Origin: an uncultured Verrucomicrobiales bacterium
GTDB lineage: Bacteria > Verrucomicrobiota > Verrucomicrobiia > Verrucomicrobiales > DEV007
Direction of reading: 5' to 3'
Length of the DNA: 46,127 nt
Assembly (NCBI GenBank): GCA_938091905.1
Contig: CALKOM010000029.1
Coordinates: 1-46,127 of the forward strand
Shown: piece by piece, positions 13,574-36,848 of the stretch
Layout: each line of letters begins with the position of its first letter
Position numbering within the stretch: position 1 is the first letter of the stretch
Notes under the pieces: generated by a model
Database searches by the model: none
What the model was told of the DNA's origin: nothing
What the model saw: the letters and a program-made list of their open reading frames with translations, nothing else
Made by a program: the position numbers and the translations under genes

Positions 13574-15761
13574 CTATACCACTGGAGCCTCCGCGCCCGG
13601 TCGAACGTTGAGCTGTTTCCGGAGGCCTTCCCAACGATCTCTGAAATCTGGATGGAGCCGTTTCCGATCAAACGCCTTCATGGGCTTTGCTGCGTCGTTG
13701 TGGAGACCGAGCTTAAACAGAGTTTCTAGGCTACCGAGTTGAAAGGTGGCGTAGCGGAGTGAATCGTCACCTGCGAAGGGCAAGGCACTATTCCAGTGGG
13801 CAAGGGCGTTGGCATGTTTGTTGGCGGAAGCGTGTAGCTGCGCAACCTCTGCCCAGGCCCATCCGTTTCGAGGTGCGAGTTTGGCCAATGCGCCAGCGTG
13901 CTCGATGAGAGCTTCGTTCGTCAGCAGGGCTTCAGTCTCAAGGTAGCGGAACTAAGCTTGTTCTAGCTCTGGAATAGCGGTGAGCGTGCGCATGAAGTTG
14001 GGACTTTGGCTAATTTGCATAGAGACTTCCGTGCGGGCTTCCTTGTCCAGTTCTCCCTTGTCCATGGCCTGGGCCAAGTAGGTAAGAACTTCCTTGAGGA
14101 AGGTGGCCTTAGGTGAAGCGTTGGTGTCAGGAGCTAGCTTTGCTCGCCGGATCTGGGCCGGGATGACGAGGTTCAGCTCATCTTTCGCTAGTAATGGCAT
14201 GGACCAGCCTAACGTCAGCCAAGTTCCGGCGTCGAAATCGCTAGCGAGTGGAAGCAACTGAAGGTTCGCGGTGAAGACTTCAGGCATCCAGAGGTGCCAG
14301 TCGCTGAGAAAGGCGTTCTCAAGATTCTTAAGAATGAGCTCTTGTAGTTGAGGCTGAGTCGAGCTGATGCTGATGCTGATGCTGATGCCGATGCCGATGC
14401 CGATGCTGATGCTGATGCTGATGCTGATGCTGATGCTGATGCTGATGCTGATGCTGATGCTGATGCTGATGCTGATGCTGAGTAGGCTTTCTAATTGAGC
14501 GCGGAGTGTACTTGGTCCATCCGCTAGGCTTAGTCGGCCAGTAAGTTGGAAGAGGCTCTGTTGGCAACGTCGATCCCTTACATAGGTTAGGCCGTGCAGA
14601 TCCGGGAGCTTAAGACTCTTCCCGATATGCTGGTATTGGCGTTTAAGGTGCCGAGCTGCGGAAGGCTCGAGGCCGACGAGAGCTAGAGTGGCTTGTTCGA
14701 GGGCCGGGTCCTGCCACGGGAAATCGATGATTCGTTTTGCAAAGTGGATCAACCGCTTTGCTCGCGTTGATTCTGCGTCCTCTTTTGGATCGGGAAGTGC
14801 TAGAAGCAGAGCGTCTGCGAACGTGACGTGATCGGGGTGATCTTTGAGTTCGGGGATGGATGCGTCATCGCCCTGCTGGAAATAGGGCTGTTCGCCGGTT
14901 TGGGGGCTGTGAAGCCAATCGAATCGCGCCCAATCCTTCAAAAGCCATTGAGACACGAGTGCGGTATTGCCCTGTCTACGTGCTAAAGCGAGCCATCCGA
15001 AATCGACCTGCGAATCGCCAGCCTCGGCAACCGTTGCGATCGTGGACGTGTGCTGACCTTGAAGCGCTAACTCAAACAATGTTCGTCCAAGCCCGTAGTC
15101 TGTGACATTGCCTCCAAGTGTTTCTACCCATTGTTTGGCCAGACTGGCTTTGTCGCTCTTGAATAGGAAGTCGCTTTGCGTCAGGGTTAGGCTGAGGGTC
15201 TAGAGCTGTGCTTCGGTGGCCATCCCCTGATCAATCCCGCGAAGGAGAGTCTTGCCCATGGCTTGGATTACCGAAGGCGGTAGATATGAGTTAAACAGGC
15301 TGGCGCATGACTCTGATAGAGCCATGCGGCTGGGAAGGGAAAGAGTATCGCTGTTAAGGGCGGACAGCATGGTTTCCCAAGCGCCGTGATCGGCGATCGG
15401 GGATTCTGATCGTAGGTGTTGAGCTGGTAGAGCCGGAGACGAACTGCGCTGTGGGTCTTGCGTAAAGCTAGCACATGTAGGTAGGCACTGATTGCGTCCT
15501 CACGCTGATCGAGAAACTCGCAAGCGAGGCCAAACGTGGCCCATTGTTGCGAGTTCTTGTCATCGATTGGGTGAACGGAACTTAGAAAAGCCTCCTGTTC
15601 CTGAACTGGGTTTCCCAGGTCGTCAAAGCCGGATCCACTTTACTGAGGCCATTGACGCGAAGCGCATGTTTGGATAGGGACCGGAAGGCTTCCATCGGCG
15701 TCTCTTGAGAGATCGCCTGACACATCACGAAGGCGCTGAGAATCAATAGCCAGAGGCGCAT
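13574..15761 (-). pseudogene. Degraded secreted TPR-like helical protein gene
   Basis: Signal peptide MRLWLLILSAFVMCQAIS at 15761. Frameshift within ~15638-15585 into a TPR-like segment (WATFGLACEFLDQREDAISAYLHVLAL); second frameshift near 15400-15430. In-frame TAG at 15200-15202 and 13952-13954 joins ORFs 13952..15079 and 13574..13888 in one frame. Confidence 0.72.
14363..14481. repeat. Hexanucleotide microsatellite (GCTGAT)4(GCCGAT)3(GCTGAT)12 plus a partial unit
   Basis: Counted directly: 19 full units; encodes (Ile-Ser/Gly)n in the minus-strand ORF frame. Confidence 0.97.
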
Positions 15762-33410: not shown

Positions 33411-34550
33411 TTAGCTCTCAGTCGACCATGTTTCTTGCCCGTAATGGGTGAGGGCTTCTTGATCAAGTTCCACGCCGAGACCAGGCCCTTCTGGAACAGT
33501 GCCGTAGCTGTTTTCAAACTTGAGTGGGGTCTTCAAGAGATCATGTTCGCGAATCATCCTTCCGAAGATATCTGAGGGCAGGAGCGCTTCCTTGCTCGCG
33601 GCGCACTGGTGGAGATAGCTCGCTTCGAGGATGCCAAGATCGACTTCGGATCCGTGCCAGTAGGGTTTGCGGATAAGTTCTGCGATAGTTGCCATTTTGG
33701 ACACATTGTAGAGCCCTCCATTGAAATTGAAGTAATCGCAGGCGTCTAACTTCACGGCACGGAGAATGTCCGTGATGTGTTGGTAACCCATTTCATTGTA
33801 AGGGAGAGAAATGTGCAGGGCGATGGGGATCTCGATGCGTTGGCGTAGGTGGGCGAGGGATTCGATGTCCCAGCGAGCGATCGGATCTTCTAAGCAACGA
33901 ACATTGCCAACTTCGGCTAACTCTTGGGCCATCCGAAAGGCGGTTGGGACGTCTTCGAAACGTTGGTTAGGATCCAGAATGATCTGGAAATCTGGTCCGC
34001 AGGCATCTTTCACGGCCCCACACCAGGCGGTCACGGGATCATCTGCCGAGCACTTGAATTTGATGCAATCGTAGCCAGCATCTTGGCCCTCCTTGGCTTT
34101 GCGGGCTGCGTCTTTGATCGTTCGATGTCCTGTCCAGAAACTGCAATACACCTTGTCTCGGTAACGTCCGCCTAACAGATCACTGACAGAAACGTCATGA
34201 CAGCGTGCGTAGGCATCGACGATGGCACATTCAAACCCATCATAAACGCGGCCATAGGGGAGAGGAAGTGCTTGGATATTGATTTTCGAGAGATCAAGCC
34301 CCACCAGCGTGTTGGCAAAGGACTTCATTTGTTCGGCTGGCAAGCCCCGGTAGGACTCGCCTAGACCGAACACACCGTTATCTAGAGTGATTTGGATGAT
34401 CCACTTTGGGATCTCATCGAATTGCAAGCTCCACTCTGTCTTGCCACCGTAAGCGAGCATGTGGAGTGGCTTGTCGAATTCCGGAGAATTGATACTGTCC
34501 GGCTGAGCAGGGACCTTGACAGAGTCGAGTTGGATGCGGCGGATCTTCAT
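33411..34550 (-). CDS. Mandelate racemase / muconate lactonizing enzyme family (enolase superfamily)
   Basis: GVFGLGE, LLGGRYRDKV, IKFK, LDPNQ, LEDP, VPEGPGLGVELD. Start placed at MKIRRI (34550); the longer ORF start is a repeat artefact. Confidence 0.9.
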   Translation of the reverse strand: MKIRRIQLDSVKVPAQPDSINSPEFDKPLHMLAYGGKTEWSLQFDEIPKWIIQITLDNGVFGLGESYRGLPAEQMKSFANTLVGLDLSKINIQALPLPYGRVYDGFECAIVDAYARCHDVSVSDLLGGRYRDKVYCSFWTGHRTIKDAARKAKEGQDAGYDCIKFKCSADDPVTAWCGAVKDACGPDFQIILDPNQRFEDVPTAFRMAQELAEVGNVRCLEDPIARWDIESLAHLRQRIEIPIALHISLPYNEMGYQHITDILRAVKLDACDYFNFNGGLYNVSKMATIAELIRKPYWHGSEVDLGILEASYLHQCAASKEALLPSDIFGRMIREHDLLKTPLKFENSYGTVPEGPGLGVELDQEALTHYGQETWSTES

Positions 34551-34582
34551 ACGATGGGAGTGGGATACTGGAGGATGTCTCG

Positions 34583-34618
34583 CGCAGAGACGCAGAGACG
34601 CAGAGACGCAGAGACGCA
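34583..34618. repeat. Octamer tandem repeat (CGCAGAGA) x4.5
   Basis: Read directly; overlaps the left inverted repeat. Confidence 0.95.
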
Positions 34619-34622
34619 AGGA

Positions 34623-34977
34623 TTAAAGTTGATCGGCGAGGCGATGGAGATCGTCTTCGACGAGGCCCAGAGGGAGCTTGGCTAGTTTGATGTAAGTTAG
34701 CGTTTGATTGCGATCGGCTGGCTTCGCTTCTTCAATGGACTTGAGCTCAATCAGTAAAAGACCAATCACCACCCAATCTGCCTGAAAGCGATGATCGATG
34801 ACATGACCATCCCACTCGACCGCAAGGGAAGCTTCGGCTTCTATCTGCAGCCCAGCCTTCCTGAGTTCGTCAGCGGGTATTCGCTGACAGACAGACTCAA
34901 GTAGACCCAGGCCCCAGAGCCTGATGGACCTTGACTGCGCGATCTAAGACAATGTCTGAATTTTCATTAACCTCCAC
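34623..34977 (-). pseudogene. GxxExxY protein (PD-(D/E)xK nuclease-like), frameshifted
   Basis: Manual translation: VEVNENSDIVLDRAVKVHQALGPG, +1 frameshift near 34907, LLESVCQR...FQADWVV..LLLIELKS...NQTLTYIKLAKLPLGL. GTG start with AGAGGA upstream; motif Tyr changed to Cys; the usual LINF segment is missing. Confidence 0.85.
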
Positions 34978-35039
34978 GCGTCGTATCCTCTTCGTCTCTG
35001 AGTCTCGGCGCGAGACTATAATTGAGCCGTGCGAATCGT

Positions 35040-36848
35040 CTAGGAATTGGGCGCGTCCTGCTCGTCAGTTTTCTTCTCTTTAGCGACTGATCGCACGTAG
35101 AGTTCACGCAATTGCTTGAAGTCGACGCTAGACGGACTGTCGCTCATGATGTCGACGCCCTTGTTGTTCTTGGGAAAGGCGATGACTTCACGGATGCTTT
35201 CTTCACCACAGATCAGCATGACGAGGCGATCAAATCCTAACGCAACACCGCCGTGAGGAGGGGCTCCGTAACTGAAGGCGGTAAGTATATGAGAGAACAT
35301 CGCCTCCTGCTCTTCGTCACTGATACCCAGTGCGGTGAACATCTTCTGCTGAAGCTCTTGTTCGTGAATTCGGATACTCCCGCCACCGATTTCATTGCCG
35401 TTGAGAACGACATCGTAAGCTTCAGCTCGGATATTGGCGTAATCGCCCGCCTCGAGTTTGTCCATGTCTTCCAACTTGGGGCGAGTGAAGGGGTGGTGGA
35501 CAGCATTCCATTTCTCTTCTTCCGCATCGAAAGCGAGAAGTGGAAAATCTGTGACCCAAAGGAAATCAAGATCGGTGTTGCCTTCTAGCAGGTTCTTCAA
35601 CTCAGCCACTGCGAGGCGCATGCGGCCGAGAACATCGCAGGCAGCGTCCCACTTGTCGGCGGCGAAGAGAATGAGATCGCCAGGCTCGATGTTGAGCTTG
35701 GTGCGGAGAGCCTCGATTTCTTCGTCCGTCATGCGTTTGACGAAGGGGGAACGCCAGGTCTTGCGATCGACATCGCGTGCCTGGATGTAGGCGAGGCCTT
35801 TGGCCCCGGCTTCTTGGGCGAGTTGGGTGAGCTTGTCGATCTGGCCGGTGGAAATGTCGGCAAAGCCTTTGGCGTTGATCGCTTTGACCACGCCACCGTT
35901 GGCGACCGCTCCAGAAAAAACGCGGAATTCGCAGTCCTTAAGATCTTTCGTGACGTCGATGAGCTTCATGTCAAAGCGACGATCTGGCTTGTCCGAGCCG
36001 TAAGTGTCCATCGCGGTGTGGTAGGTCAGTTGCTCGAAGGAATCTGGAATATCCACACCGAGAGCGTCTTTGAAACAACGCGCCAGCAGGCCTTCTACTA
36101 ACGAAACGATGTCCGCTTGGTCGACGAATGAAGCCTCCACATCCACCTGTGTGAATTCTGGCTGACGGTCGGCCCGCAGGTCTTCATCTCGGAAACAGCG
36201 AGCGATCTGAAAATACTTGTCCACACCAGCGACTTGCAAGAGCTGCTTGTACTGCTGAGGTGCCTGCGGCAGGGCGTAGAATTTGCCCGGATTGAGCCGG
36301 GACGGGACGAGGAAATCACGAGCACCTTCGGGTGTACTCTTAGAAAGAATCGGCGTTTCGATCTCGAGGAAGCCTTTCTCGTCGAGGAAATCGCGCGTGG
36401 CCTTGGAAACGCGGTGGCGCATTTGCAGGTTGCGTGCCAAGCGAGGGCGACGCAGGTCGAGGTAGCGATGCTTGAGGCGTAGGTCTTCGTTAGAGAGTTC
36501 CTTGTCCAGCTGGAAAGGAAGTACTTCTGCACGACTGATGACTTCGACAGTCTGCACGACGACCTCCACATCGCCGGTCTCGAGTTTGTCATTGGCCGTG
36601 CCTTCAAGGCGATCAGCCACGCGGCCTTGAATCTTGAGGACATCTTCAAATCTTAACGTGTGACTTAACTTGGCCGCCTCTTCGCTCTCTTCGGGACGGA
36701 ACACGGCCTGGGTGAGCCCTTCACGATCGCGCAGGTCGATGAAGATGACGCCGCCGTGGTCGCGGGTGGAATTGACCCAACCGCTGAGGGTGACGACTTC
36801 GCCGATGTGTTCCTTGCGGATTTCGTTGCAATGATGGGTGCGATACAT
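35040..36848 (-). CDS. aspS: Aspartate--tRNA ligase, probably non-discriminating Asp/Asn type
   Basis: MYRTH, RDHGGVIFIDLRD, TPEGARDFLVPSR, FRDEDLRADRQPEFTQ, GGGSIRIH, PPHGGVALGFDR. Confidence 0.98.
   Translation of the reverse strand: MYRTHHCNEIRKEHIGEVVTLSGWVNSTRDHGGVIFIDLRDREGLTQAVFRPEESEEAAKLSHTLRFEDVLKIQGRVADRLEGTANDKLETGDVEVVVQTVEVISRAEVLPFQLDKELSNEDLRLKHRYLDLRRPRLARNLQMRHRVSKATRDFLDEKGFLEIETPILSKSTPEGARDFLVPSRLNPGKFYALPQAPQQYKQLLQVAGVDKYFQIARCFRDEDLRADRQPEFTQVDVEASFVDQADIVSLVEGLLARCFKDALGVDIPDSFEQLTYHTAMDTYGSDKPDRRFDMKLIDVTKDLKDCEFRVFSGAVANGGVVKAINAKGFADISTGQIDKLTQLAQEAGAKGLAYIQARDVDRKTWRSPFVKRMTDEEIEALRTKLNIEPGDLILFAADKWDAACDVLGRMRLAVAELKNLLEGNTDLDFLWVTDFPLLAFDAEEEKWNAVHHPFTRPKLEDMDKLEAGDYANIRAEAYDVVLNGNEIGGGSIRIHEQELQQKMFTALGISDEEQEAMFSHILTAFSYGAPPHGGVALGFDRLVMLICGEESIREVIAFPKNNKGVDIMSDSPSSVDFKQLRELYVRSVAKEKKTDEQDAPNS

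Follow-up and report, generated by a model that had tools for sequence, protein, structure and literature searches.

We describe here a small gene cassette at positions 34577-35016 of a 46,127-nt stretch of DNA (the window, meaning this whole stretch) from an uncultured Verrucomicrobiales bacterium. The cassette lies between aspS and an enolase-superfamily gene, and it consists of a gene of the GxxExxY family (TIGR04256; PDDEXK_3, PF13366) enclosed by inverted arms that are built from tandem octamers. In this assembly the window copy is a pseudogene, a decayed member of a widespread cassette class; the copy itself is a dead relic, and the interest is in the class that it reveals. The periodic-arm unit behaves as an insertion, and filled and empty sites, gene-less miniature versions (minis) with both ends, and solo arms all occur in the class. 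We hold it probable, if only narrowly, that these elements are promoter-less, RNA-level stem-loop cassettes of the intervening sequence (IVS) type that live inside transcription units, a reading that leaves the route of mobility aside.

The window locus, read in the sense of the gene, contains the following features (SD, Shine-Dalgarno sequence; G003, a congener with ~84% DNA identity).

35040-36848, minus strand: aspS, the upstream co-oriented host gene (tRNA-synt_2, E 9.4e-122; GAD; anticodon OB).
34988-35016, minus strand: 5' arm, GTCTCG followed by about three degenerate CGCAGAGA units, with an SD-like AGAGGA at its inner end; orthologous to the sole arm in G003.
34965-34982, minus strand: start region, with GTG at 34977-34975, GGAGG at 34975-34971 and ATG at 34967-34965.
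34623-34977, minus strand: GxxExxY/PDDEXK_3 gene remnant, with a +1 frameshift at the CCC run 34906-34908 and the stop codon TAA at 34623-34625.
34577-34622, minus strand: 3' arm, 4.5 copies of CGCAGAGA followed by CGAGAC; its minus-strand translation contains ..LCVSASLR...
34551-34576, minus strand: 26-nt spacer from the 3' arm to the ATG of the enolase-superfamily gene (34550-34548); missing in G003 along with the gene and the 3' arm.
33411-34550, minus strand: enolase-superfamily (MR_MLE) gene, the downstream co-oriented host gene (MR_MLE_C, E 8.3e-35).

A preliminary description of this DNA had proposed a GxxExxY unit between inverted octamer arms at 34577-35016, and the unit proved to be real. 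The arm pair at 34577-34605 and 34988-35016 measures 29 nt on each side, is complementary at 26 of 29 positions (90%) and leaves an interval of 382 nt. The left arm consists of GTCTCG and 4.5 perfect CGCAGAGA octamers (34583-34618 by Tandem Repeats Finder (TRF), 100% matches), and the right arm is a degenerate version of it. The enclosed remnant matched TIGR04256 (E 1.8e-16, 60.6 bits, curated cut-off 35) and PF13366 (E 1.1e-15, 58.5 bits, cut-off 22), in both cases with the residues past the frameshift. Its N-terminal homology, VEVNENSDIVLDRAVKVHQALGP, begins at the in-frame GTG at 34977. General scrambling of the gene, as described earlier, was not what we found: a single extra C in the CCC run at 34906-34908 splits ..VHQALGPG from LLESV.., and past this frameshift the sequence (LLESVCQRIP...IELKS...) is open until the TAA at 34623. 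The copy is decaying all the same, as had been noted. The GxxExxY motif is not intact, with its tyrosine changed to C (LLESVC) independently of the frameshift, and the fold is incomplete, with about 10 residues gone near the C terminus around the invariant LINFG block, including the invariant N/F. The 5' arm is eroding, and the reading frame and part of the fold are lost. The PD-(D/E)xK catalytic core (D...E-x-K) is kept as ADWVV...IELKS. Among the contigs of four public runs, which show neither ends nor joints, the extra base of the CCC run is absent from one related strain, which restores the reading frame, and another related strain has one octamer fewer (an 8-nt deletion at 34583).

The ribosome-binding site had been placed at the inner edge of the upstream repeat. 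This holds for the SD-like AGAGGA at the inner end of the 5' arm, and the choice of start codon is now wider. GTG 34977 is an alternative start, 8 nt past AGAGGA and in frame with the N-terminal homology, and it is added to ATG 34967, which is preceded by GGAGG (34971-34975) and whose frame meets a stop after 7 codons. As in the preliminary description, neither a transposase nor a target-site duplication (TSD) was seen at the window locus.

The genome of the window (G000) comprises 6.19 Mb in 212 contigs, and the window is its contig C29. A genome-wide scan for inverted repeats with periodic arms (arms of at least 20 nt, spacer 20-700 nt) returned just five pairs, every one of this class. Three of them enclose GxxExxY genes (the window, C27 and C207, the last with units CACGAATGGA), and two are gene-less minis (C27 and C161). 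The CGCAGAGA octamer array was found in four places of the genome: the window; C27:56437-56901, where perfect 29-nt arms surround an intact GxxExxY gene; C27:54721-54863, without a gene and with an 89-nt interior whose similarity to the 5' part of the gene is suggestive only; and C21:1192-1316, also gene-less. When a 16-mer of the arm was searched with at most one mismatch, 13 overlapping positions in four elements were recovered; the reversed-pattern control of this search is uninformative, since reversing the octamer only rotates it. With up to two mismatches allowed, single matches are mostly noise (43 versus 28 with the reversed pattern). The genome holds nine TIGR04256 matches, most of them damaged (at least six of the nine are broken or partial). 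The other GxxExxY copies (C48, C20 and C60) have degenerate arms of different unit types, and the window and C27 copies share 54% protein identity.

On C27 the cassette is embedded in a chain of overlapping genes. The TGA of a PSD1 gene overlaps the GTG of the GxxExxY open reading frame (ORF), which reads through the 5' arm (..AHAETQRRRD..), and the TGA of this ORF in turn overlaps the ATG of a sulfatase gene (GTGA, then ATGA). The signal peptide of the sulfatase (MNHSLSKSSASLRLCVSLLFICCGAHA) is encoded through the 3' arm of the full cassette, and octamer arrays are open in the reading frames seen. Gene-less minis also occupy co-directional gene junctions; the C27 mini is a 57-codon ORF that runs through both arms and starts in an ATGA overlap with the sulfatase stop. 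The sulfatase gene (G000:C27:54870-56480) thus lies between two CGCAGAGA-armed cassettes, the full one on its 5' side and the mini on its 3' side.

The architecture is not confined to this genome. With the C27 protein core, 80 loci of one subfamily were fetched from one-genome-per-species contigs whose labels cover many phyla. Loci counted as canonical if the gene had a forward array no more than 150 nt upstream and a reverse array no more than 150 nt downstream, and as evaluable if 200 nt were present on both sides (75 loci). Canonical bracketing was found in 54 of the 75 evaluable loci and in 1 of 370 shifted pseudo-genes from the same loci, and 70 of the 75 carried an array on at least one side within 150 nt. 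Array density was 2.95/kb up to 250 nt from the gene and 0.16/kb farther away. In a diverse sample of the family, drawn from 41 genomes of the window's order and judged by a bracketing inverted-repeat score of at least 14, 21 of 34 members were bracketed compared to 2 of 130 controls. The link between GxxExxY genes and TQRRRD/LCVSASLR-type repeats, which the preliminary description had put forward, is borne out by both comparisons.

A cassette measures ~420-470 nt and runs in the order 5' arm, SD and start codon, ORF, and reverse-complement 3' arm. The 5' arm consists of TCACG or TCGCG followed by 2-4 units of CGCRGAGN, and the ORF encodes a PD-(D/E)xK (GxxExxY) protein of 115-125 residues. 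In the commonest form (CGCGGAGN arms, for example loci L071 and L072), the final 5' arm unit doubles as the SD and is followed by the start codon; this form reads ..(G/A)AC / TCACGCGGAGGCGCGGAGA(A)CGCGGAGG-AAGAAGCC-ATG, ORF, CCTCCGCGTCTCCGCGCCTCCGCGTGA / ACCAAT... The window lineage has the variant CGCAGAGA in every unit of both arms. Arms in the diverse sample are built from different units of 7-11 nt, such as CACGAATGGA, CACAGATGGA, CGCAGATTT, CACGGAGGG and ACAGGATT, and have a common outer end (TTCAC/AACCAC) and the unit pattern CRCRRAK; CACAGAT-type GxxExxY arms occur in L156. Arm identity was 0.86-0.87 over 19 nt, compared to 0.67 for gene-body DNA (1596 pairs), and the two arms of one element matched at 17.2 of 19 positions versus 16.45 of 19 between elements, a value that none of 5000 permutations reached.

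The family is present in 32 of the 41 relatives, with 0-9 copies per genome, and the catalytic D..ExK and many further columns are invariant across 41 sequences. An AlphaFold2 model of the C27 sister copy (pLDDT 94) shows a minimal PD-(D/E)xK fold whose closest structural matches are Cas4 and Hjc resolvases, a result that does not discriminate between the readings weighed below. A PDB sequence search gave a best match of E 0.96, no PADLOC model matched, and an Rfam scan of 10 loci (E up to 1) returned no rRNA, its sole match being a chance miRNA model on a hairpin. Beside GxxExxY genes we also observed forward and reverse arrays alternating in regular tandem series (L060 2000-3400, L065 2540-2950 and L104 1130-1670, with periods of ~163, 136 and 238 nt, respectively), which resemble chains of gene-less minis. 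In L088 (2000-3450), a spacing of ~416 nt between the arrays that lie upstream of the matched gene hints at as many as three tandem cassettes.

The cassettes are placed in the direction of their host operons. Neighbours were counted as ORFs of at least 150 aa with a Pfam match (139 ORFs scanned); downstream neighbours were on the same strand in 38 cases and on the opposite strand in 10, and upstream neighbours in 24 and 2, respectively. Restriction-modification (R-M) genes, type I and others, stand beside 21 of the 80 loci, typically in the order HsdS or RhuM, cassette, HsdR. Six loci have a cassette between PSD1 (DUF1553) and DUF1501 or a sulfatase, and further cassettes lie between purC and purL (L064) and between an ABC ATPase (ABC_tran) and an FtsX permease (L120). 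Annotated records show the same arrangement: in a Sphingomonas chromid the gene order is fabD, GxxExxY, fabG, acpP and fabF, and in a Bacteroides record GxxExxY follows radA. These host contexts have no function in common. Of 57 anchored loci, 42 have an ORF that meets no stop codon up to the end of the 3' arm; it is read through the arm (tail ..SASPRLRVN..) and terminates 11-83 nt past it; in 25 of the 57 the cassette stop is the TGA of the next gene's ATGA.

Filled and empty alleles could be compared at several junctions. At the PSD1-sulfatase junction the C27-type cassette is present in G000 and G003 and absent from the congener G001 and from G007, a member of another genus. In the empty G001 junction the PSD1 stop directly overlaps the sulfatase start (ATGA). 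The G007 junction (L126, G007:C4, ~1140-1420) has, in place of the cassette, a gene-less inverted pair of TTAGC-type arms, a style otherwise found around four-helix-bundle genes, which suggests an independent invasion of the same junction. Likewise, the fabD-fabG spacer is empty in Sphingomonas paeninsulae (32 nt) and contains a cassette in S. parapaucimobilis, just upstream of the conserved fabG SD. At the aspS-enolase junction of G003 only the aspS-side arm is left; the ORF is gone, and so are the second arm and the 26-nt spacer. This residual arm ends in ..CAGAGGATACGGTG immediately before the GTG of the enolase-superfamily gene, and it serves as the SD region of that gene. More distant congeners have different neighbours at their aspS and enolase-superfamily genes and no array. 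The comparison with empty sites, which the preliminary description had called for at the aspS-enolase junction, gave empty alleles at the two sister sites and no clean one at the window site, where G003 keeps one arm. We found no direct repeat at the cassette ends in the window, C27, the Sphingomonas filled/empty pair or the 57 anchored loci, and the insertion sites share no common target sequence.

Cassettes with 85-95% DNA identity were found at seven loci in metagenome-assembled genomes (MAGs) labelled as four or five phyla. Their upstream sequences are unrelated, and similarity starts exactly at the 5' arm, which speaks for horizontal spread. Behind the cassette, the 5' end of hsdR is common to five of the seven. 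In L078 and L074, 35-60 nt of the hsdR start have come along into non-hsdR contexts, and what follows there is another arm or a truncated second GxxExxY gene. In L074 (550-1005) this second gene lies right behind the first cassette, and its N-terminus is replaced by ~20 codons of the hsdR start, fused at GPGLLES. One locus, L043, labelled Verrucomicrobiales, is identical to the G003 locus over the stretch compared.

A second, unrelated kind of gene has the same surroundings. Inverted arrays flank the four-helix-bundle genes (23S_rRNA_IVP, TIGR02436) of these genomes on both sides at 18 of 29 loci, compared to 0 of 108 controls. Their arm units (TTAGCNG, AGTTCAAAG and GGGTTCAG, usually with an AGT start) differ from those of GxxExxY cassettes. 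In G029 (L196, C1:2566000-2585900), four 23S_rRNA_IVP cassettes lie between co-directional genes of one exosortase/polysaccharide cluster, whose genes include an epimerase, a UDP-sugar dehydrogenase, a heparinase-like gene and a glycosyltransferase. At L132 (1400-1460; G000:C148) a separate tight hairpin (CAGATTGTGTGTCATGTCAC...GTGACACACAATCTG) adjoins the arm of a four-helix-bundle cassette.

Under the reading that we favour, the two arms would pair in the operon transcript into a 25-30-bp stem, looping out the ORF and hiding its SD. In RNA folding the arms close both the minimum free energy and the centroid structures of the cassette RNA (z-score -3.7 in the window, -7.4 in C27). Ribosomes translating the upstream gene would open the stem, and the chain of translation from the upstream gene through the cassette ORF to the downstream gene would stay coupled. 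Because such a stem would loop out the ORF and mask its SD, an insertion would be nearly neutral, and imprecise deletion of the cassette would be costly. By analogy with the ORF-bearing IVSs of 23S rRNA, the stem would be a plausible, even likely, substrate of RNase III, and the nuclease would be selfish or mobility cargo.

Several results weigh against this reading. The pairing of the arms in RNA is taken from predicted folds. If the sense RNA is the selected form, G.U mismatches are expected over A.C mismatches, and our counts are inconsistent on this point, at 39 versus 22 in one count and 19 versus 25 in another. The closer match of arms within an element could stem from gene conversion instead of selection for pairing. 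The conservation of arm sequence beyond complementarity, together with an arm style that is specific to the cargo, points to a putative sequence-specific binder, which would fit a role at the DNA level. The 80 loci are relatives within one subfamily and are non-independent, and the taxon labels of the MAGs may be wrong, as the L043 locus illustrates. Finally, no clean empty allele was found at the aspS-enolase site of the window, only the half-empty one of G003.

The strongest competitor is a mobile element that acts at the DNA level, which we consider rather unlikely. Here the arms would be terminal inverted repeats (TIRs) or single-stranded DNA hairpin sites recognised by the encoded nuclease, pairing in RNA would be incidental, and the nuclease would cut the element and move it, whether through transposition, through homing into arm pairs that lack a gene or through one-ended copying, similar to REP/RAYT (repetitive extragenic palindromic sequences and their associated tyrosine transposases) or to miniature inverted-repeat transposable elements (MITEs). 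It would account well for arm sequence that is kept across loci of different labelled phyla, well beyond the gene body, for an arm style that tracks the cargo (TTCAC/AACCAC and CRCRRAK with GxxExxY, AGT... with four-helix-bundle genes) and for minis that retain both ends. The shared block, which begins sharply at the 5' arm and has a ragged 3' side that takes hsdR sequence along, also fits, as does a fold whose closest matches, Cas4 and Hjc-type resolvases, work on DNA, and one of the two mismatch counts (19 versus 25) shows no G.U bias. However, neither TSDs nor a common target sequence mark the insertion sites, there was no burst like that of REPINs since gene-less copies are rare, and the copies within G000 are old, as the divergence of the window and C27 proteins indicates. 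The four-helix bundle, an unrelated non-nuclease cargo, has the same architecture, and a nuclease is therefore no necessary partner of such arms. A DNA transposon would have no need to follow the direction of its host operons as strongly as these cassettes do. Plasmids hardly carry the family (8 of 72,556 records, all of them large and non-mobilizable), and 50,697 phage records yielded no match.

A domesticated small gene is, in our judgement, improbable. GxxExxY would then be a host-beneficial nuclease, for example an R-M accessory, its SD would be masked by a long-range stem, and presence and absence would reflect gain and loss in operons and horizontal transfer of whole loci. The R-M neighbourhood of about a quarter of the loci (the 21 of 80 above) and the joint travel of cassette and hsdR at 79-92% DNA identity speak for it, as does the SD embedded in the arm; moreover, the invariance of the catalytic D..ExK and many other columns means that the protein is under purifying selection. 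Against this, operons that have no common function (fab, pur, ABC-transporter, PSD1/sulfatase and polysaccharide) harbour cassettes as well, copy number ranges from none to nine with many copies broken, as in G000, and the PADLOC search gave no match. Minis and solo arms are, moreover, leftovers of decaying insertions. That the locus is an artefact of chance or slippage, a microsatellite near a weak reverse-complement match and no functional unit, has a next to negligible probability. The number of array units does vary between strains, as in the 8-nt deletion, and the right arm is degenerate, yet only five such pairs exist in 6.19 Mb, all of this class, and the control rates were 1/370, 2/130 and 0/108. 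In a separate part of the window, TRF also reported a hexamer tandem repeat (GCTGAT x19.8, 14363-14481, 98% matches).

Beside these readings stands a broader proposal, which we put forward tentatively, as possible and short of probable. GxxExxY and four-helix-bundle cassettes may together form an unrecognised, cross-phylum class of operon invaders. Their arms would be read in three ways, as stem, as SD/anti-SD and as codons, which would keep host operons working; the arms would also be specific recognition sites of the element's own protein, which would drive copying into new intercistronic junctions, and rRNA IVSs would be the subset that landed in rRNA. If IVSs are one landing site of a larger class of operon cassettes, the question of their origin and mobility, of more than 30 years' standing according to the Coxiella study (PMC4990558), becomes testable in culturable and harmless bacteria that offer clear filled and empty sites. 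The large 'unknown function' families PF13366/TIGR04256 and PF05635/TIGR02436 would gain context, and spurious repeat-encoded peptides (TQRRRD, LCVSASLR, SASPRLRVN...) and mis-called gene starts in annotations would be explained. The proposal would also show how an insertion can occupy essential operons such as fabD-fabG without polar damage, and synthetic operons might use the arms as portable modules for insulation or coupling. In a published table the function of PDDEXK_3/PF13366 is listed as 'Unknown'. We found no description of GxxExxY cassettes or their arms in the literature searched, which left curators' family notes and non-open papers outside, and a literature search with six arm 15-mers gave nothing relevant; a published mention of GxxExxY deals with RT classification.

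Among known systems, the REP/REPIN-RAYT pair resembles the cassettes in having a single-copy-type gene between inverted short repeats that also occur gene-less. The REP/RAYT-like reading of the preliminary description found no support: Pfam and NCBIfam give PDDEXK_3 only, a PD-(D/E)xK fold and not an HUH/Y1 (IS200/IS605-like) transposase; gene-less pairs number 2-3 per genome, not tens to hundreds; and the arms are non-palindromic tandem arrays, whereas REPs are individually palindromic. A TIR transposon or MITE with a TSD was also rejected, as inverted arms are present and a TSD is not. MITEs and Rickettsia palindromic elements are similar in that internally deleted derivatives keep their ends and that the arms are open in the frames of neighbouring ORFs and translated within them; unlike MITEs, the cassettes have no transposase-bearing parent, no TSD and a low copy number. 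Integron cassettes likewise combine promoter-less, co-oriented small ORFs with an imperfect inverted repeat and may stand in tandem (as in L088, L118 and L078). An integron attC site lies after the ORF and has RYYYAAC/GTTRRRY cores, whereas the arms here bracket the ORF as periodic arrays and the cassettes are scattered among ordinary operons and not gathered at an attI; the identity was rejected on these defining features. Free-standing homing endonuclease genes of the phage T4 seg/mob type lie between conserved genes, belong to the GIY-YIG and HNH families and have no bracketing inverted arrays. They share with the cassettes a small nuclease ORF between co-transcribed conserved genes, presence/absence polymorphism, frequent decay and co-carried flanking sequence (hsdR here); the cassettes differ in their bracketing arrays and in that no conserved target sequence was seen.

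The closest known system is the ORF-bearing IVS of 23S rRNA (Coxiella, Leptospira and others), with S23p/23S_rRNA_IVP/TIGR02436 cargo. In Coxiella (PMC4990558), the IVS is 428-444 nt long with a 28-bp terminal stem containing one mismatch and one bulge, its SD lies in the stem, and tandem GACAGAT heptamers of variable number precede an ORF that is in the sense of the host transcript and decaying; RNase III excises the element, and its origin is described as unclear, a mobile-element origin having been proposed long ago. This account supports the likeness to IVSs drawn in the preliminary description; the two kinds of element agree in their size, their stem with the SD inside it, their short tandem units and their sense orientation. 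The cassettes, too, measure ~430-460 nt and have terminal inverted repeats with a stem of ~28 bp, a mismatch and a bulge; their arms or leaders consist of short tandem units (octamers, and CACAGAT in L156, beside the GACAGAT heptamers of the IVS); and the SD lies inside the stem ahead of a single small ORF that shares the orientation of the host transcript. Both kinds also occur without an ORF, are distributed sporadically and show decaying ORFs. A long enclosing terminal stem, as in an IVS, is predicted for the window copy, with its 26/29 complementary arms that close the computed folds, and TIGR02436 genes that lie elsewhere than in rRNA have the same kind of wrapping in these genomes. The window element is not a strict IVS because it is not in rRNA. 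The cassettes differ from IVSs in their host site, which is a junction of protein-coding genes and not helix 25 or 45 of 23S rRNA; in their cargo, a PD-(D/E)xK nuclease (PDDEXK_3) and not the four-helix-bundle S23p; and in an ORF that continues across the 3' arm and whose translation would be chained to that of the next gene. For bacteria of the candidate phyla radiation, a survey of insertions in rRNA reports 23S_rRNA_IVP ORFs and, within the part of it drawn on here, no PDDEXK (PMC11270868). What appears to be new here is the occurrence of stem-loop cassettes of probable IVS type outside rRNA, with a nuclease as cargo and with likely translational chaining to their host genes.

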